IMG/VR virus record: IMGVR_UViG_3300027861_000001
Coordinates: 32,001 to 96,000 of that record
Origin: a virus
Length of the DNA: 64,000 nucleotides
Reading direction: 5' to 3' (one strand)
This document shows, piece by piece, positions 8,224-32,215 of the stretch (positions are counted from its first letter, which is position 1; the number at the start of each line of letters is the position of its first letter). Under the pieces are notes generated by a model that ran no database searches, had not been told where the DNA came from, and was given only the letters and a program-made list of their open reading frames with translations. Position numbers and translations under genes: made by a program.

Positions 8224-8958
8224 GAGGAAAACACTATGGATTTAAATGATATTTCAACAGAAGAATTAGAAGAAGAAGTCGAGAAAAGAAAGCGAGATGC
8301 CATACCAAAACCATTAAGTGTGATAGGTCTAACCGCTTTGACACGAATATGTAACGAATATATCAATGGATTAGCAGGTGGTTACCAAATTAAAGACGGT
8401 GAACATTACATCTTTGAAACAGCAATAGAAGCTGTATACGGTAAAGATGTGTGGGATTGGGTTAATTCACAAGACTGTATGTTGTAGGAAAATAAAAATG
8501 AAAAAGATAATAAACCTAATTAAAAACCTGTTAAACAGTAAACCAAAACAATCAAAGTATAATAACGTAGAAAAGAACGTGATGGATACGATAAAAGAAT
8601 ATGATAAAGGGCATCGTTAGTATGAGTAAAACACACGTAAAAGCATTTTTTAAGTTGTTTCTGGGTGTAGTAATAGTTCAATTACTGCTGGCACTGCTTT
8701 TTGTACCGTTCTGGAATATGTCTGTAGCTGAAACATTTACCTTTGCTAACAGTATAGAATATATTCAGGCACTTGGTGCGCTAGGAATATTTTGGTGCTT
8801 TTTACTTGTTACTCTAGTAATTAAATCGTTCGTAAGTTTGGTAACAGGTGCTATTGCTACTGTTCACATTACTAAAGCGTGGGAAACTGCCAAAGAAGAA
8901 GCTAGAAAAAAGATGGAAGAAAATATGGAAAAACTGGGCAAACATTTCCCTGATGATA

Positions 8959-9315
8959 ATGATGAATAAAAACGGATCGGGGTTAGGCGTGGAAAGTAAG
9001 TTTTTATGTTGTTACACTGAAGGAAACCCTTTGGAACTTGAATTTAAGTTTATTATAAAATTAGTTTACCGTGGTGTTTTCCAAAAGTATATACTTTACA
9101 AACGTGAAAACTTTCTTAATTACTTTGGTGATAAACGAAATCCATTCGAAAAAGATACGTACACGCATTTAGATTTAATGTACGAAAAGTTTTATATGGC
9201 AGGTTATACAGTAGATAAAAATTGTGATGATTGTAACTACAGGTTCTTCTGTTTTACTGATGAACCTATTTCGATAACTATCGACGCATCAGGGAAAAAT
9301 TGGATACTTTTATGA
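8959..9315 (+). CDS. protein with internal tag
   Basis: CDDCNYRFFCFTD; start position uncertain. Confidence 0.65.
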   Translation: MMNKNGSGLGVESKFLCCYTEGNPLELEFKFIIKLVYRGVFQKYILYKRENFLNYFGDKRNPFEKDTYTHLDLMYEKFYMAGYTVDKNCDDCNYRFFCFTDEPISITIDASGKNWILL

Positions 9316-9662
9316 AAAAGAAGTATTATCCTATAGTAACATTTCCAAGTAAATCCAGTAGTAAGGTTTATACTGTCTCAATGGATAATGATGGAGGATT
9401 AAGTTGTGATTGTCCTGCTTGGGTATTTAAAAAAGCTGGAGAAAGAATTTGTAGGCATATAAAAGAAGTCACAGCACAAGGTTTTGGTACAGTAGAAGGA
9501 AAGTTTGTTGTGTTAGTAGATTCATTGTCAAACAAAGAACCTATCTTCTGTAAAAAATATCCAAGGCAGTGTGATACTTGTAGTTTAAGATTTCCATGTT
9601 ATACAGCTAATACACCTGAGTTTTCTATTAAAGAATTGAGAAAAGAAGGTATTGTTAAGTGA
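9312..9662 (+). CDS. SWIM zinc-finger protein with tag
   Basis: SCDCPAW..CRH SWIM motif; CDTCSLRFPCYTA. Confidence 0.75.
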   Translation: MKKKYYPIVTFPSKSSSKVYTVSMDNDGGLSCDCPAWVFKKAGERICRHIKEVTAQGFGTVEGKFVVLVDSLSNKEPIFCKKYPRQCDTCSLRFPCYTANTPEFSIKELRKEGIVK

Positions 9663-9982
9663 ATTGGAATGATCAAACAAAGGAACAAAAACGGTATGCG
9701 TTAAATAAATTAGCGGCTGATGGTTCTGCTTTAGAACGAGGATATAAAGTTTGTATAGTAAACCAATCTGACCTTTCACATGAAGATTATACACACAAAA
9801 TATTTTGTGTAACTGGTTTTCGACCCATAAACGAGTCTTTATGCACAGATGATTCACTGGTTGTAGAATTACAAAGCGAAAAAATGGGAGGACTTAGTTG
9901 TTACGCTTGGCGTCTTCACATTATGGAAGATGAAGAAAGTTGTAATAATTGTCCAGCTAGGTTTAAATGTTGGACAGGATAA
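9659..9982 (+). CDS. small protein with C-terminal tag
   Basis: Ends CNNCPARFKCWTG*. Confidence 0.75.
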   Translation: MNWNDQTKEQKRYALNKLAADGSALERGYKVCIVNQSDLSHEDYTHKIFCVTGFRPINESLCTDDSLVVELQSEKMGGLSCYAWRLHIMEDEESCNNCPARFKCWTG

Positions 9983-10821: not shown

Positions 10822-11151
10822 ATGAAAATTCGTAAAGGTTTTGTCAGTAATAGTAGTAGCACAAGTTTCTGTATCTTTGGAGCCTGTGTCAAGGAAGGTT
10901 GGGGAGAAAGTTTAGTAACTTTGAGTGCTGAGGAAATTGAAGATAGGTTACAAAATACTACCTTAAGATATGCAACTGGTGAGTCAGATGAAATTTATGT
11001 TGGGTTAAATTGGCATGATATGGACGACAACGAAACCAAACAAGACTTCATGCGACGAATAAGAAAGCTAATCTTGGACGCATTTCCAGAAATAACTGAC
11101 CAAGAATCCTTAAAAGTATATATGGAAGTGCAGGGGTGGTATGACGGATGA
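10822..11151 (+). CDS. MKxRxGFVSNSS-motif protein 1
   Basis: Starts MKIRKGFVSNSSSTSF. Confidence 0.85.
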   Translation: MKIRKGFVSNSSSTSFCIFGACVKEGWGESLVTLSAEEIEDRLQNTTLRYATGESDEIYVGLNWHDMDDNETKQDFMRRIRKLILDAFPEITDQESLKVYMEVQGWYDG

Positions 11152-11711
11152 AAATAAGAAATGGTTTTGTGTCTAACAGTTCTACAGCTAGCTTTATTGT
11201 TTTAATAAAACCTAAAAGAATTAAAGATGTAGAGTTTGTTTTGCGGTATGCAACAGGTGAGTATCCTGTATGTAAAACTGTGTCTAAAAGAAAGAAAGAA
11301 TTAAATAAAGAAATAAGTAAGCTGGACGAAGATATACTTTACGTTAAGGAAAAATACAAGGAACTAGATTCGCTTTATAGTGAGAATGCTTTTGATTTTC
11401 ATGAGTTGTGCCATGACATATCAAACATAAATAATTATAGAAAATCTATATTCGCTATTAGGACAATGAGAGAGCATCCATCAAAAATTAAGCTAAAAAG
11501 AACTTTCTACCACGACAAACTCAAAAATGTAATTGAAAACATTAAGGAAGCAAAGGTTGATTGCCAAAATGAGTTGAAAAGTCTAACTGGTAATGAAACT
11601 TGGAGTATTGTTAGTTTTCAAGATGATGCCAATTTCGGTAGAATGCAAGGAATGGTAGACGAGTTAGTTAAAGATGGAGACGCTATAATTATTTTGGAGG
11701 AAAGAACATGA
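11148..11711 (+). CDS. MKxRxGFVSNSS-motif protein 2
   Basis: Starts MKIRNGFVSNSSTASF. Confidence 0.85.
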   Translation: MKIRNGFVSNSSTASFIVLIKPKRIKDVEFVLRYATGEYPVCKTVSKRKKELNKEISKLDEDILYVKEKYKELDSLYSENAFDFHELCHDISNINNYRKSIFAIRTMREHPSKIKLKRTFYHDKLKNVIENIKEAKVDCQNELKSLTGNETWSIVSFQDDANFGRMQGMVDELVKDGDAIIILEERT

Positions 11712-12250
11712 AAACTAGAACAGGGTTTGTATCAAACAGTTCCAGTAGCTCTTTCGTAGTTTTATTTCCAAAAGTTCCAAAAACTGTTGAAGATGTTAAG
11801 AAGATGGTTTTTTCGAAAGATGAATCATTCTACCCTCGTCCATCTGGTTCAGACTTAAAAACGTGGAGAATAAACAAAGAATATTGGGAAGTTGAGGAAG
11901 TTGCCAAAACAATATTCAGTGATATACAAGAGCAGGAAGTAAATAATAAAGAAGCCATGCTTAATGAGGTGGATGGTGGTGTAAATCCAGATGATTTTAG
12001 GTCTGGTGTAGCAACCACTTATGAGAGAGGAGACGGAACTTCTTACACAATAAATGAGATAGATTGGAAAGCGTATTATAAAGCTGAACACAAACAAAGC
12101 AAGAGAATATTAGAGGCATTTTTAAAGAATAATACAGAAACGGCAGGTTATGTGTTTGAGTATTCAGACAACGATAGTGGTTATTCCAGTGCATTAGAAC
12201 ACGATGGTTTGTTTGAAAATCTTCCACACATCAAAACCAGTAAACACTAA
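11708..12250 (+). CDS. MKxRxGFVSNSS-motif protein 3
   Basis: Starts MKTRTGFVSNSSSSSF. Confidence 0.85.
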   Translation: MKTRTGFVSNSSSSSFVVLFPKVPKTVEDVKKMVFSKDESFYPRPSGSDLKTWRINKEYWEVEEVAKTIFSDIQEQEVNNKEAMLNEVDGGVNPDDFRSGVATTYERGDGTSYTINEIDWKAYYKAEHKQSKRILEAFLKNNTETAGYVFEYSDNDSGYSSALEHDGLFENLPHIKTSKH

Positions 12251-12264
12251 AAAGGAGAAAGTAA

Positions 12265-12588
12265 ATGAAAGTAAGGCAGGGATTCGTAAGCAATAGTTCA
12301 AGTAGCTCGTTCATAGTGTTGGTAAAAGATGAAACCATGTCGGCAGAAGAGCGAAGAGAAAAAAACATAGCAATATACAGAGAAGAATATGGAGAAGACT
12401 TCGACGAAGTTGCAGAGGATGGTTACATAAACAAGTGGTTAGCTGGGTACGAGAAAGAACACCAATATATTCTTCTAAAACAAAGTGTTGAGTATGGCGG
12501 AGAAGACTCGGTGACCGCTATAGTAACTGCTTTGTTAGATAAGCTAGGAGTTGCTACAGAAAATATAACGTTTGCGTGGGATGAGTAA
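12265..12588 (+). CDS. MKxRxGFVSNSS-motif protein 4
   Basis: Starts MKVRQGFVSNSSSSSF. Confidence 0.85.
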   Translation: MKVRQGFVSNSSSSSFIVLVKDETMSAEERREKNIAIYREEYGEDFDEVAEDGYINKWLAGYEKEHQYILLKQSVEYGGEDSVTAIVTALLDKLGVATENITFAWDE

Positions 12589-12589
12589 C

Positions 12590-12847
12590 ATGAAAATTAG
12601 AACAGGTTTTGTATCAAACAGTAGCAGTAGTAGTTTTGTTCTAACAAAAATGAATTTGTCACAACAACAACTTCAAAAAATTAGTGAGAAGATACGTTTA
12701 TTTGAAGGTGCGAGTAGTGATATGTACATTTATAATGGAAAAAGATTTTTTCACGGTGAGATGTCAATGCATGACATCGAAGCATTTGAAAATTTTCTTG
12801 TGAATCAACTAGGGGTTAGTGAGGAAGATTTCGAATTTAATCAGTAG
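12590..12847 (+). CDS. MKxRxGFVSNSS-motif protein 5
   Basis: Starts MKIRTGFVSNSSSSSF (start corrected to 12590). Confidence 0.85.
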   Translation: MKIRTGFVSNSSSSSFVLTKMNLSQQQLQKISEKIRLFEGASSDMYIYNGKRFFHGEMSMHDIEAFENFLVNQLGVSEEDFEFNQ

Positions 12848-12856
12848 GAGAACGAA

Positions 12857-13183
12857 ATGAAAATAAGACAAGGATTTGTGTCCAATAGTTCTAGTTCGTC
12901 TTTTATAGTTCTGAAAGAGAACTTGAATAATTGGCAGCTTAAACAACTGTATGAACATATGTCTGTTGGGAAAACATTGGGAGTGTATATTCCTTATAGA
13001 CCAATAGATAAACCATTCACAGATGACGATAGAATGTATGAAGGTATGGACGCTTGGAGCATAAATGAAGAAGTTAAAGACGACGGTAATACTTACATAA
13101 CAGGATATACTTCTATGAATAATTTTCCAATGGAGGATTTCTTAAAGAAAATTGGTGTTAAGGGTGTACTTTGGGATTACTAA
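12857..13183 (+). CDS. MKxRxGFVSNSS-motif protein 6
   Basis: Starts MKIRQGFVSNSSSSSF. Confidence 0.85.
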   Translation: MKIRQGFVSNSSSSSFIVLKENLNNWQLKQLYEHMSVGKTLGVYIPYRPIDKPFTDDDRMYEGMDAWSINEEVKDDGNTYITGYTSMNNFPMEDFLKKIGVKGVLWDY

Positions 13184-13198
13184 AAAAGGAGTAAAATA

Positions 13199-13558
13199 AT
13201 GAAAATAAGAAAAGGTTTTGTGAGTAATAGTAGCTCAACTTCGTTCTGTGTTTATGGTGATATTATCGAAGAAAGTGAATTAAAAGATATCTTTTCAAAA
13301 CTTGTAGATACGTGGAGTGATGAGGATGATTTGTATGCAATTTGTGAAGATTTGGAACTTGTGTTTCAAGACACGGGAATAGAAGTTATAGCCGGAGAAG
13401 ACTGTCTAGTGATTGGTAGAGGTTATGACACGCTACGCGACAACGAAACTGGGGCAGAATTCAAAACCTCCGTAGAGACAGCTTTAAAGGCAAAGCTTGG
13501 AGATGAAGCTGTAGGTAAAATGCACCTCAGTTATAACGAGGGAGAAATTTATAGTTAA
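13199..13558 (+). CDS. MKxRxGFVSNSS-motif protein 7
   Basis: Starts MKIRKGFVSNSSSTSF. Confidence 0.85.
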   Translation: MKIRKGFVSNSSSTSFCVYGDIIEESELKDIFSKLVDTWSDEDDLYAICEDLELVFQDTGIEVIAGEDCLVIGRGYDTLRDNETGAEFKTSVETALKAKLGDEAVGKMHLSYNEGEIYS

Positions 13559-13569
13559 AGGAGTAAGTC

Positions 13570-14589
13570 GTGGGAACAAAAACAGTTAAGTCACCAGAGT
13601 ATAATTATATCTTTAATGACGAAACAGGGTTCTTTTTAAGGTGGGGAAAGTCTCTAGAGGACGACCCACTTTACTCACCATACGGCCCAGAGATACTAGA
13701 TATAGAAATATCAACAATTTGCTCTCATGGGTGTTCGTTCTGTTATAAAACAAACAAGAGTGAAGGAATTAATATGACTTATGAAACCTTTACTAGTATG
13801 TTTGAAAAGTTCCCAAGTAACTTGACTCAGATTGCCTTTGGAATTGGGGATATTGACGGGAATCCAGACTTATATGATATTATGGATTATTGCAACCTAA
13901 AAAAAGTAATCCCCAACATTACTATCAACGGTACTAGGATGACTCCTGGGCATTATGACTCTCTATCACAGTTGTGTGGAGCAGTAGCAGTAAGTCTCTA
14001 TGATTATGACACCTGTTATAACGCTGTTAAGGAATTGACAGATCGAGGAATGAAACAAGTAAACATTCACTGTCTCTTGGCTGTTGAGACTTTGGAAAAA
14101 TGTTACCAAGTACTTAAAGATGTAAAAACTGATGAAAGACTGAGTGGTCTTAACGCTGTAGTGTTTTTAATTTTGAAACCAAAAGGAGAAAGAAACCACT
14201 TCACACAAGTAAAAGATAAAGAAGAATTTAAACGTCTTATTGATTTTGCTTTAAAGGCCGAAGTTGGTTTTGGATTTGATTCATGTACTGCTTCAAGTTT
14301 TCTAGAGGCAGTTAGCACAGAACCTAACTATGATACGTATAATTTGTTGTCTGAACCATGTGAATCTACTTTATTTTCATACTACATTAACGTTGAAGGT
14401 AAAGGATTTCCTTGCAGTTTCACCGAATCAGTTTCACCGTACAACGGTATTGACATCTTGAAAGTGGAAGACTTTATGCTTGAGGTGTGGAACCATGAAG
14501 AAACTTTATCTTTTAGAAATAAAGTATTAAGCAATCTTGATTGTAGAGGATGCAGAATGTGTCCTCAATATGATTTACAAATGGTATAA
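13570..14589 (+). CDS. radical SAM enzyme with SPASM/twitch-like C-terminus
   Basis: CSHGCSFC (CxxxCxxC); C-terminal CES..YINVEGKGFPCSF..CRGCRMCP. Confidence 0.9.
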   Translation: MGTKTVKSPEYNYIFNDETGFFLRWGKSLEDDPLYSPYGPEILDIEISTICSHGCSFCYKTNKSEGINMTYETFTSMFEKFPSNLTQIAFGIGDIDGNPDLYDIMDYCNLKKVIPNITINGTRMTPGHYDSLSQLCGAVAVSLYDYDTCYNAVKELTDRGMKQVNIHCLLAVETLEKCYQVLKDVKTDERLSGLNAVVFLILKPKGERNHFTQVKDKEEFKRLIDFALKAEVGFGFDSCTASSFLEAVSTEPNYDTYNLLSEPCESTLFSYYINVEGKGFPCSFTESVSPYNGIDILKVEDFMLEVWNHEETLSFRNKVLSNLDCRGCRMCPQYDLQMV

Positions 14590-14606: not shown

Positions 14607-16079
14607 GTGAAAGCAGTTGTAAGAGAAGGTGTCGCACAAGGTAGCTACAGAGGTGGTGCTTACTATAACTATGATATGGTAAGAATACAGGGCAAAACTA
14701 TCGAAGTATCTACAATCAAAAACAGTGAATATGATTATATAACTATACCAAACGGAACTGACGAGCGTAGTTGGAGTTGGTTGAGAGAATGGCTTGTAAT
14801 CAACTCTGCCGGAGAGGTGCGAGAGGCAAGAGTAAGGTTACTAAAAGCTTTTGATGATGTTGATGTTAATACACCTGTTGTACTAGACATTTATACAGCT
14901 TTGAGGCTTGGTGTAGGTAAAGATCAAATGGTTGGGTTCAGTGTTGAAAGGGAAGGTAGGATTGCTTACGCCAGTAAACCTGAACACTTGTACGACATTA
15001 CAAAAAGACAACGAAGCTCACTACAGAGATATATACGTAGACAATTGAAATTTGGCACATCTCGTATCAAAGATCATGAGTTGGATTTACTTTGTCGTCA
15101 AGTTGTAAAAGTGTGTTATGACGGACAATTTACACTATTAAAAGGTGTTGCTATAGCAGATGCATACGAACGTCACGCTGGGTGCGACTCATGTATGACA
15201 GGTGATAGAACTTTAGTAGAAATGTACGCTATTAATAGTAATATTGAACTGGCTCTGTATCAATTCAACGGACGAGAAGCAAGGGCACTGTTGTGGACTT
15301 GTGATGACGGTATGAAAGTTCTTGATCGTATATATCCAAATGATGGTGGTCATATTGAAATTATGAAGGCGTGGGCAGCGGAGAATGGGTGGATATACAG
15401 AGTTAGTAACTCATTACCTGAAGACGATACTATAGAGTTATCAGATCGTAGTTTAAGGTATATAACTGTTAAACCTACACAAAATATACCATATTTGGAT
15501 ACTTTTTACCACGGAGAAGGAGTCAACGGTGGTATGATGGTATTGTCAAATGACGAAGATCATGGTCATTTTGTAGGTGACGGAGAGGGTGGATATACAT
15601 GTGAGTTTTGTGGCGCATATGTTAACCCAGATGATTGTTTTTGTGATAATGATGACTATATATGTGATTCTTGTCAAGATGAGTATTATGTACTATGTGA
15701 CAGATGTGATGAGTATGTTAATATTGAGAGTAGCCGAGCTACTGTAGAGGTAGATAATGAGATAATATGTCGTGACTGTCGCTCTGAATTAGATATAGTA
15801 GAGTGCTATCACTGTGGTTCTTTCACGCTCGATTATGTTGAAGTAGACAATAAGTATAATTATTGTGAATGTTGTGCTGATATTTATGCTGATGAGTGTG
15901 ATAAGTGTGGTAACCTTACAACTAATATAAAGGTTACTAATGATGATAGTTCTATCTGTCCTGATTGTTGGGACGAAAAGGCATACATATGTGATGGGTG
16001 TGGTAGTTTATTCGACGTAGATAATACAGAAGGAGGTTACTGTGTGGAATGTCAGTCAACCAGAAAAGAAACCATATAA
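14607..16079 (+). CDS. large protein with C-terminal poly-CxxC (tandem Zn-ribbon) region
   Basis: SCM..RALLW..DRIY..PYLDT core followed by about 10 CxxC units. Confidence 0.75.
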   Translation: MKAVVREGVAQGSYRGGAYYNYDMVRIQGKTIEVSTIKNSEYDYITIPNGTDERSWSWLREWLVINSAGEVREARVRLLKAFDDVDVNTPVVLDIYTALRLGVGKDQMVGFSVEREGRIAYASKPEHLYDITKRQRSSLQRYIRRQLKFGTSRIKDHELDLLCRQVVKVCYDGQFTLLKGVAIADAYERHAGCDSCMTGDRTLVEMYAINSNIELALYQFNGREARALLWTCDDGMKVLDRIYPNDGGHIEIMKAWAAENGWIYRVSNSLPEDDTIELSDRSLRYITVKPTQNIPYLDTFYHGEGVNGGMMVLSNDEDHGHFVGDGEGGYTCEFCGAYVNPDDCFCDNDDYICDSCQDEYYVLCDRCDEYVNIESSRATVEVDNEIICRDCRSELDIVECYHCGSFTLDYVEVDNKYNYCECCADIYADECDKCGNLTTNIKVTNDDSSICPDCWDEKAYICDGCGSLFDVDNTEGGYCVECQSTRKETI

Positions 16080-16953: not shown

Positions 16954-17244
16954 AATGCACGAAATATATACTCTTACTACTATCAGAAATAAAGCTTGGG
17001 ACACTGACACACGATGTGTTGGATGGTTCCCAAACTACGAAGATGCCGAATCAACAATAATTAGGTCTGGTGAACTATTGAATGAAGCTGGTTATTATGA
17101 ATATGCTGTCATAGAATGTATTAAGGCAGGTATCTACCAATACGACGATAACCCAGCTTGGTTTGCTTATAACTATAACCTTGAAACTTATGGAAAAATA
17201 GAAAGACCAGAAGACTTTGAACATGTTTGCGGGTTTGGAATAGG

Positions 17245-17520
17245 ATGAAAAACCATAAAGTGCTGTGTACCTACACTAAGGATGGTAGTTATTACTACAT
17301 GCTCTGGGATGAGGACGAACGTCGATTAAAGAAGTATTCACACGATAGGTATCCTTTGGATATGGTTGATAGTCTATTCAACAACACTCTTTATTATACG
17401 TATAGCCAACTAGAGTATATGAATATTCGTTACACAGAATGGATAAACGGTGGAGAAGATTTAGAACCAGAAAATTGTGACGCTTGTAAGTATAGATTCA
17501 TATGTTGGACTGAGGAATGA
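17245..17520 (+). CDS. small protein with C-terminal tag
   Basis: Ends CDACKYRFICWTEE*. Confidence 0.75.
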   Translation: MKNHKVLCTYTKDGSYYYMLWDEDERRLKKYSHDRYPLDMVDSLFNNTLYYTYSQLEYMNIRYTEWINGGEDLEPENCDACKYRFICWTEE

Positions 17521-17837
17521 GGGTATTAAACCAAACTAAATATTCAAGGTTCGTATGTTACTACGACGACTGTAATAGTTGTAAAATAAGATATAAGTGT
17601 TGGACTGGGGATATCACCGCATACGGCACCCTATATTACAAAATAAAAATAGAAGCATATGCTTTCTTTAGAGAAAAGTACGGTGCTGAAATAGACGACT
17701 ATGCTATTAGCGAAGCTTTTGAAGGTAAAAAAAGTAACCTTTTGAGCTTTTTTATTACAGGAGACCTTGATAGTACTGTTATTGCTTGTGAAGTGTTTCA
17801 CAGCAAAGAATGGAAAAGTTTTAGAGAAGGAGAATAA
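17517..17837 (+). CDS. small protein with N-proximal tag
   Basis: CNSCKIRYKCWTG. Confidence 0.7.
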   Translation: MRVLNQTKYSRFVCYYDDCNSCKIRYKCWTGDITAYGTLYYKIKIEAYAFFREKYGAEIDDYAISEAFEGKKSNLLSFFITGDLDSTVIACEVFHSKEWKSFREGE

Positions 17838-31396: not shown

Positions 31397-32215
31397 TTAT
31401 GTTATCTCGTTTATAGATTCTATATTCGCTATGGTTATACCATTTATAGTGTCTGCGTGAACTAGTTGTATACCGTTCCTATAATGGTCAGCTAACGGAT
31501 TACCAACATCACCACCAGCCCAAGGATATGGTAGAAAGCAAGGTACTGGTGATTGATCATATGTTACCTCTAACGCAAACTTGGCTTTAGCAAGTACCGA
31601 AACAGAAGTACTCCATGCTACTGGTGGTTCCTGCCTTTGTGGATCACTATAAGTACTAACTTGAGATGTGAATCCAAACCCAAGAGTTGTGAACCCAGAC
31701 GTGTCAACCCAATCTGCTGCATATTGATTTCCAGTAAGCCTGTACCACTTATTTGTTGTTATTTCGTCTAAATGACAGGCTCCTATACTTAGTAGATGAT
31801 CATCACCTACAAACTGCATTGCGTTTCCGAAATTAAAAGAACCATCCAACCAACTTGGTAAGAATATACCCAAGTCACACTCATATACCCCTAAGTAAAG
31901 ATTTGGTAATGGTAAGGTTAACGTTTCAAAATTAAAAAGAAACCTAACATTTGTAATTGTAACTGAGCCTATAGTGCTTGTGTCAAAGCAGCAAACACTC
32001 CTTCTAACTCCAGTATACATCCCTGTTCTTTTAACTCCACCATATGTTGTGGCTCCTACCTCAACATAAGATTCCTCGTATTCATTAGTTGACCAAGTGT
32101 TGTGGTCAAACGATGTCCAAATATCGTAAGAATCTGTCATGTTCCCTGAACCACACTTTGCTGGATCATCTCCTGATACTGGATAATTCCAACTACCCGC
32201 TGTAAATATTCCCAT
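31397..32215 (-). CDS. putative virion-associated beta-sandwich protein
   Basis: Acidic, aromatic-rich, Lys-poor; RS..FDTS.I..TIT; C-terminal INGITIANIESIN. Confidence 0.5.
   Translation of the reverse strand: MGIFTAGSWNYPVSGDDPAKCGSGNMTDSYDIWTSFDHNTWSTNEYEESYVEVGATTYGGVKRTGMYTGVRRSVCCFDTSTIGSVTITNVRFLFNFETLTLPLPNLYLGVYECDLGIFLPSWLDGSFNFGNAMQFVGDDHLLSIGACHLDEITTNKWYRLTGNQYAADWVDTSGFTTLGFGFTSQVSTYSDPQRQEPPVAWSTSVSVLAKAKFALEVTYDQSPVPCFLPYPWAGGDVGNPLADHYRNGIQLVHADTINGITIANIESINEIT

Follow-up and report, generated by a model that had tools for sequence, protein, structure and literature searches.

Maturation by radical S-adenosylmethionine (SAM) enzymes is known for short peptides, namely RiPPs (peptides made on the ribosome and modified after translation), and for a handful of dedicated enzymes, sulfatases for example. 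In the SPASM/twitch subclass of radical SAM enzymes, the auxiliary Fe-S domain at the C-terminus has either a seven-cysteine SPASM motif, which holds two clusters, or a partial twitch motif, which holds one. A radical SAM protein also features in bacterial immunity: in the anti-phage operon KpAvs2-Avap1-Avap2 of Klebsiella pneumoniae, the radical SAM protein Avap1 is required against some phages, and the small protein Avap2 binds KpAvs2 stably. Attempts to delete Avap2 failed, which the authors took as a hint of toxicity, and the roles of Avap1 and Avap2 were left open (Bechon et al., 2024; PMC11564622). Here we describe a locus in a 64,000-nucleotide stretch of viral DNA (hereafter the window; positions 32,001 to 96,000 of IMG/VR record IMGVR_UViG_3300027861_000001), which comes from a complete marine phage genome of 149,053 bp with direct terminal repeats. 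It consists of seven tandem genes for proteins that share an N-terminal peptide, which we call the tag, followed by a gene for a radical SAM enzyme. This phage module is probably an undescribed protein-modification system, and we favour, with rather more confidence than doubt, a reading from sequence in which the eight genes form one two-component module whose enzyme would modify the tag of seven client proteins.

The seven adjoining open reading frames (ORFs) occupy positions 10822-13558 of the + strand and encode proteins of 85-187 aa, numbered 1 to 7 in gene order (Table 1). All begin with the same 16 residues, MKxRxGFVSNSS(S/T)xSF, of which 12 positions (M1, K2, R4, G6, F7, V8, S9, N10, S11, S12, S15 and F16) are invariant, and an alignment of the full proteins has a mean column identity of 30%. 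An earlier note, made from this sequence alone, had described seven consecutive genes with a near-invariant N-terminus of this length and divergent, mostly acidic bodies, and both descriptions stand: six of the seven proteins have an isoelectric point (pI) of 4.2-5.2, protein 2 being the exception. It had also seen two pairs of paralogues, of which proteins 1 and 7 are a clear case (37% identity over 93 aa, E 5e-15) whereas proteins 5 and 6 form a weak pair whose similarity ends at about residue 47. The serine codons at tag positions 9, 12, 13 and 15 mix AGY and TCN, and Arg4 is encoded by CGT, AGA or AGG; what selection preserves is therefore the peptide, not a DNA repeat, in agreement with the same note. 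Across the whole genome, a degenerate DNA pattern for FVSNSSS occurs at exactly 7 sites, all of them at this locus, against 0 forward and 1 reverse for a reversed-pattern control. For the fifth gene we adopted the ATG at 12590 over the TTG at 12572 given by the ORF lister, because the tag then has the same offset as in the other six. A GGAG-type ribosome-binding site precedes each of the seven tagged ORFs, two of the junctions between them are 4-nt overlaps and the remaining gaps are 1-15 nt; judged by spacing and overlaps alone, the module would be co-transcribed. A promoter and terminator scan of the region returned no more sites than shuffled sequence, and megablast of the region against cultured phages found no near-identical phage.

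The tag is not a peculiarity of this genome. From the fetched loci we drew 531 distinct tagged proteins, 501 of which have Gly at position 6 counted from the start Met. At positions not forced by the search pattern, conservation remains high (K2 99%, R4 99%, S13 89%, S14 82%, S15 96% and F16 95%); S9-N10-S11-S12 is conserved at about 100%, as are G6 and F7 in phages, and positions 17-18 after the tag are Ile or Val. The bodies behind this constant start are of many kinds. Tagged proteins range from 80 to 280 aa, with none of 329 aa or more found (weak evidence), and 81% of 513 have a pI below 5.5. Once the first 22 residues are cut off, the bodies fall into at least 153 BLAST clusters without mutual similarity, with the seven of the window in six of these, and when the two best-sampled body families are aligned profile to profile, the alignment is confined to residues 1-19. 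The single 'family of substrates' proposed in the earlier note must accordingly give way to a tag carried by many bodies without detectable relationship. At E <= 0.001, a profile of the window's seven proteins, in which the tag dominates, has matches to 17,118 cluster representatives (clusters at 50% identity), and almost all of these ~17,000 protein clusters come from large phages. The tag thus exists as a peptide fixed at the extreme N-terminus and under selection at the peptide level.

As to what the bodies do, Pfam, NCBIfam, PADLOC and PHROGs give no label, with one exception that is the sole functional label given to any body: residues 64-147 of a tagged protein in a 176,788-bp T4-like record (L056:13924-14388), the counterpart of which in phage KP15 is KP15_97, match phrog_132, 'head-tail adaptor', at 3.3e-10. 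In a few database proteins (P0263, P0272 and P0326) the tag is internal, at about residue 110-145, and each of them is matched over two stretches. Gene calling has probably merged two neighbouring tagged genes in these cases; true tandem fusions are the less likely reading.

Tag and enzyme travel together. We assembled two sets of loci, one of 77 IMG/VR loci found by the tag pattern and one of 80 loci centred on the enzyme. Most tag-centred loci are same-strand arrays of 2-14 tagged ORFs, and where there is enough flank they mostly also hold an enzyme homologue of 35-63% identity. At 72 of the 80 enzyme-centred loci at least one tagged ORF lies within 10 kb (1-13 copies, median 3); every one of the 320 tags at these loci is on the enzyme strand, the nearest tag is separated from the enzyme by a median of 363 nt, and in all 72 tag-bearing loci tags occur within 5 kb of the enzyme. 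The other eight loci include five with tags elsewhere in the same record, and two short enzyme-bearing fragments show no tag by the search pattern. In KP15 the two are well apart: the enzyme is at 90-91 kb, whereas the two tagged genes are at 66.9 and 70.9 kb. Conversely, of five records with a tag but without an enzyme at the tag locus, three hold one farther off. Among cellular sequences, five of five 'cellular' assemblies with a tag carry the enzyme on the same contig; most of these are contigs of metagenome-assembled genomes (MAGs), 40-250 kb long, and have the look of phage DNA that was binned. An isolate assembly of Flagellimonas marina CGMCC 1.15774 (L165) has a 178,077-bp contig with both tag and enzyme, at 28% identity as in KP15-type phages, and the contig is probably the genome of a phage that was assembled together with its bacterial isolate. 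In 401 genomes from the class of one of the MAGs, the enzyme profile found nothing but generic radical SAM core matches. No other gene of the window is conserved beside the pair in related loci. The earlier note would have abandoned its idea if the motif family had turned out to be unlinked to this radical SAM clade, and what we see is the reverse: the linkage of the tag to the enzyme clade is tight and exclusive, in phages and, as described below, in bacteria. Among the carriers of the tag are cultured T4-like phages that infect Klebsiella, Enterobacter, Cronobacter and E. coli.

Bacterial plasmids argue most strongly for tag and enzyme acting on each other. Searching plasmids with the enzyme by tblastn gave seven full-length homologues of 29-34% identity, five in Agrobacterium and one each in Rhodobacter and Rhizobium. 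We read the gene order in four of these seven loci, and in all four a protein of ~620-890 aa with SMEK_N and NACHT/STAND (signal transduction ATPases with numerous domains) regions is followed by a tagged protein and then by the radical SAM gene. The 883-aa nucleoside triphosphatase (NTPase) of one Agrobacterium locus matches SMEK_N at 4e-42, NACHT at 7e-7 and the PADLOC model for Avs2 at 8e-27. The tagged protein, directly before the radical SAM gene, has 131-133 aa and starts with MK(I/L)K(L/M)DFVSNSSSTSF; its close relatives number ~300 and carry names from Vibrio, Methylomonas, Roseovarius, Shimia and other genera. Three of the four loci have, between the STAND NTPase and the tagged protein, an untagged protein of ~121 aa (L188:6210-6575, L189:5225-5587 and L190:5213-5578), and the N-termini of these three are visibly similar. 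The bacterial enzymes retain the cysteines and most other residues checked that are invariant in phages. Their tag is likewise invariant, but it has Asp at position 6 (in 33 proteins) and mostly Lys at position 4, with FVSNSSSTSF kept, and alignment of the bacterial protein with phage family A stops at about residue 37. Because the pairing is kept at ~30% enzyme identity and across the phage-bacterium divide, comparison of these sequences argues that tag and enzyme act on each other.

By its architecture, not by the sequences of Avap1 and Avap2, we liken the plasmid cassette to the KpAvs2-Avap1-Avap2 operon, of which it is a relative in kind: it too puts an Avs2-like STAND NTPase together with a radical SAM protein and with accessory proteins of small size. 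Unlike that operon, its NTPase has a SMEK domain and not an Mrr nuclease at the N-terminus, and its small proteins do not match PF19902 (DUF6375). The module of the window has no STAND NTPase gene nearby, so that the trio of Avs2 STAND NTPase, radical SAM protein and DUF6375 protein is not assembled there. PF19902 matched nothing in the whole genome of the window or in 401 genomes of one phylum, but the controls were silent too, which makes both results uninformative.

The enzyme itself belongs to the radical SAM superfamily. It matches Pfam Radical_SAM (PF04055) at 1.1e-8, with 35.9 bits against a cut-off of 29.5, and C51, C55 and C58 of its CxxxCxxC motif are invariant in 30 phage and four bacterial homologues. 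In an alignment built from 30 homologues, C239, C264, C282 and C331 are invariant and C328 is frequent; because there are four such further invariant cysteines, the sequence suggests a single auxiliary cluster of twitch-like type. The full two-cluster SPASM motif is absent, and the enzyme is therefore placed in the SPASM/twitch subclass as a twitch-like member. In line with this, its Pfam SPASM score of 19.4 bits falls just under the cut-off of 21.5 (an Agrobacterium homologue reaches 27.3 bits), and its profile aligns to the twitch region of BtrN (E 3e-4) and the core of SkfB, with a cysteine spacing like that in BtrN's one-cluster twitch domain. A radical SAM enzyme with SPASM/twitch-like cysteines is what the earlier note had recognised, and both sets of cysteines bear it out. 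An AlphaFold2 (AF2) model of the enzyme (predicted local distance difference test score, pLDDT, 94; predicted template modelling score, pTM, 0.91) has SuiB, SkfB, TigE, anSME and CteB as its closest solved structures (E 5e-11 to 5e-8), all modifiers of peptides or proteins, and on this model the enzyme falls in the fold class of peptide and protein maturases. Its conserved N-terminal ~40 residues are modelled as three short strands and, speculatively, might form a docking platform. The enzyme matches phrog_7293 at 2.6e-88, a PHROGs family which, like phrog_7397 below, we take to be of unknown function. In one jumbo-phage homologue (L024:5759-6766, on a 547,943-bp IMG/VR contig shared with L160) an in-frame TAG replaces the invariant Trp25 (FIR*GRAL against FLRWGKSL), which suggests stop-codon recoding or a sequencing error.

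The comparison with anSME drawn in the earlier note holds for structure (4k37, E 3e-8) but not for family membership. Like anSME and AtsB, which modify a Ser or Cys of whole proteins, in a short motif close to the N-terminus, the phage enzyme would act on a serine-rich motif in such a position. However, the tag lacks their (C/S)-x-(P/A)-x-R motif, its carriers are not sulfatases, the enzyme has four extra conserved cysteines where they have seven or eight, along with two auxiliary clusters, and it reaches no curated NCBIfam cut-off, with no anSME model among its NCBIfam matches. We have rejected membership of the anSME/AtsB family on the missing client motif, the cysteine count and the lack of an NCBIfam anSME match.

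Protein 3 offers a view of a client. It matches phrog_7397 over its full length (1.7e-11), a PHROG that five other window proteins reach via the tag only and protein 1 not at all. This is the largest body family (~175 aa), with a C-terminal SD.DG...EH...H signature; the family of protein 3 ends in FEYSDNDxxYxSALEHxGLFxNLxHIxxSxH. In its AF2 model (pLDDT 87, pTM 0.79) residues 1-10 have low confidence, the fold begins at residue 13 and residues 13-20 make up the first core strand; because of this division, the first dozen residues of the tag, S-N-S-S included, would be an exposed N-terminal arm. Neither Foldseek (best E 0.37) nor VIA-align, run against 48,161 chains (best Z 4.7), matches the fold of the family to a solved one, a sequence profile search of the PDB was empty and the ESM Atlas returned viral hypothetical clusters only. 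A tblastn search of phages with protein 3 was also blank, which is a limit of sensitivity, because genomes of the KP15, RB16 and RB43 types hold 28%-identical relatives that the peptide pattern finds and this search missed.

Taken together, these observations point to the following mechanism. The enzyme, with its single Fe-S site of twitch/SPASM type, would bind the exposed tag of each client (M-K-x-R-x-G-F-V-S-N-S-S-S-S-S-F, followed by a hydrophobic strand), SAM would be cleaved reductively, and abstraction of a hydrogen atom within the S-N-S-S-S core would lead to a covalent change there. This change could be an oxidation or dehydrogenation of serine, as with anSME and BtrN, a C-C or C-O cross-link involving F7 or F16 of the SuiB or cyclophane type, or an epimerisation; sequence alone cannot decide among the three. 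The bodies would be the working parts, or effectors, and their activity or stability would require the modification. From the pattern we infer that the enzyme physically recognises the tag and that the part modified is the tag rather than the body, and likewise the chemistry and the biological role. The bodies are probably early proteins of host takeover or counter-defence, given their location in the early region, small size, acidity and rapid diversification and the tagged protein in Avs2-like cassettes.

Not everything fits this reading with equal ease. Two fairly complete enzyme-bearing records have no true tag by the search pattern (one 100% complete, with a false match only, and one 72% complete, with none), and a 100%-complete 225-kb phage record has a tag-like ORF and no enzyme homologue. 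Part of the tag's conservation could be structural, because in the model of protein 3 residues 13-20 form a core beta strand of the folded client. The codon for K2 is always AAA in the window's seven genes, and a constant AAA at this position may reflect translation efficiency rather than recognition. Finally, neither Pfam nor NCBIfam detects a PqqD-like leader-binding domain in the enzyme, which may also set it apart from RiPP systems. With the RiPP maturases SuiB, SkfB, TigE and CteB it shares the CxxxCxxC core and a C-terminal auxiliary Fe-S domain, and the arrangement of one enzyme gene beside one or more products with a constant N-terminal recognition sequence is likewise theirs. However, its clients are not short leader-core peptides but proteins of 80-280 aa with unrelated bodies, one of them with a confidently predicted fold, the likely reaction site is the conserved part and not a variable core, no protease or exporter is conserved near the module, and lytic-type large phages encode it. 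The module therefore lacks the short leader-plus-core precursor of a RiPP locus, and also a conserved protease or exporter of the sort that such a locus usually has nearby.

The main rival to modification of the tag is that the tag is a docking handle, so that the tagged proteins would be exchangeable adaptors bringing targets (a host protein, a nucleic acid or a small molecule) to the enzyme, which would modify the target instead of the tag. We consider this unlikely, if worth keeping in mind. It accounts equally for the linkage and for the pattern of one enzyme with many partners, it fits the great diversity of the bodies, and Avap2 of the KpAvs2 operon indeed binds another protein stably (PMC11564622). 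Yet the enzymes closest to this one among solved structures work on the peptide that they bind, an invariant S-N-S-S-S-S-S at a flexible terminus is more like a reaction site than a docking surface, and we found no third conserved component that might be the target. It is quite improbable, in our view, that the tag is instead a sorting or fate signal independent of the enzyme (for capsid targeting, as with T4 internal proteins, for degradation or for secretion), the enzyme being just a frequent neighbour. Loci for T4-type internal proteins are indeed tandem hypervariable genes with a constant N-terminus, and one tagged body in RB16 has the 'head-tail adaptor' match mentioned above. However, the peptide here is a different one, with neither a Glu-type prohead-protease site nor a hydrophobic signal peptide, and the strand agreement and close spacing of tag and enzyme are left without a reason. 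Moreover, the pairing persists at 30% enzyme identity in the cassettes of bacterial plasmids, which have no capsid; on this ground and for want of the Glu-type cleavage site we have rejected capsid targeting.

Two further readings would dispense with tag modification of this kind. That the tagged proteins are a single fast-evolving paralogue family, of which the N-terminus is merely the best-conserved part and to which the enzyme is unrelated, is very improbable: there are true paralogues among the window's members, and the core strand at residues 13-20 is what such a family might retain, but profile similarity stops at residue 19 between two body families and at residue 37 between phage and bacterial ones, body lengths span 80-280 aa and the linkage to the enzyme goes without explanation. 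Least probable of all is a glycyl-radical system, with the enzyme installing a radical on Gly6 of R-x-G-F in the way that PflA does on the RVSGY motif of pyruvate formate-lyase (PFL) and GrcA. The I-R-x-G-F-V of the tag loosely resembles the I-R-V-S-G-Y-A-V of glycyl radical proteins, G6 and F7 are nearly universal in phages, and PflA is among the structural matches, although low in the list (3c8f, E 4e-6) and below the maturases, which are the best. The spacing is nevertheless one residue short (R-x-G against R-x-x-G), so the tag does not have the R-V-x-G-[FYW] pattern, and to our knowledge the activases lack a C-terminal twitch/SPASM cluster. We reject this reading because position 6 changes from Gly to an invariant Asp in the 33 bacterial tagged proteins, in which position 4 is mostly Lys and FVSNSSSTSF is kept.

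Table 1. Genes of the tag-enzyme module, in window coordinates.
Feature	Position	Strand	Remarks
Tagged protein 1	10822..11151	+	109 aa, pI 4.6; ~110-120-aa 'DDETG.QFK' body family; paralogue of protein 7
Tagged protein 2	11148..11711	+	187 aa, pI 8.6; helical/coiled-coil-like body; start overlaps stop of gene 1
Tagged protein 3	11708..12250	+	180 aa; most widespread body family, phrog_7397
Tagged protein 4	12265..12588	+	107 aa, pI 4.5
Tagged protein 5	12590..12847	+	85 aa counted from ATG 12590
Tagged protein 6	12857..13183	+	108 aa; body in second-largest body cluster
Tagged protein 7	13199..13558	+	119 aa, pI 4.2; paralogue of protein 1
Radical SAM enzyme	13570..14589	+	339 aa; CxxxCxxC at C51/C55/C58; invariant C239, C264, C282, C331

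The genes around the module deserve brief mention. The gene 3' of the enzyme (14607-16079) encodes 490 aa, the C-terminal third of which is a run of zinc-ribbon-like CxxC pairs; it lies outside the conserved module, because only one of 158 related loci has a homologue. Small flanking ORFs at 8848-9315, 9300-9662, 9659-9982, 17227-17520 and 17517-17837 share a motif CxxCxx(R)(F/Y)xC(W/F/Y)T, the genome's other 'tag' family, which is at or near the C-terminus except in 17517-17837, where it is N-proximal. None of the seven N-tagged proteins carries it.

Full-text searches, which took in the motif itself, turned up no description of the tag-enzyme pair, and the KP15 genome paper leaves the pair unmentioned. 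The system is a variation on radical-SAM protein maturation and not a new kind of chemistry; what is undescribed is the portable tag, the diversity of its clients and their distribution over phages and immune cassettes. Hundreds of small proteins without relation to each other bear the portable N-terminal tag, which one enzyme appears to serve, and the cultured T4-like carriers make the system open to experiment. Once its chemistry is known, it could yield a short genetically encoded tag for site-specific protein modification. The occurrence of the pair in Avs2-like cassettes provides a concrete hypothesis for what the unexplained radical SAM protein of the KpAvs2 operon does, and suggests that some of the 'dark matter' among early phage genes consists of enzymatically matured effectors. 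A bolder extension, which we put forward tentatively as a minority possibility, is that the tag-enzyme pair is a shared currency of phage-bacterium conflict: a matured tagged protein would regulate or arm the immune NTPase in Avs2-like cassettes, and phages, with a maturase and tagged libraries of their own, would mimic, titrate or block these host parts. If this is true, the tagged libraries of phages would be a modification-dependent counter-defence arsenal.

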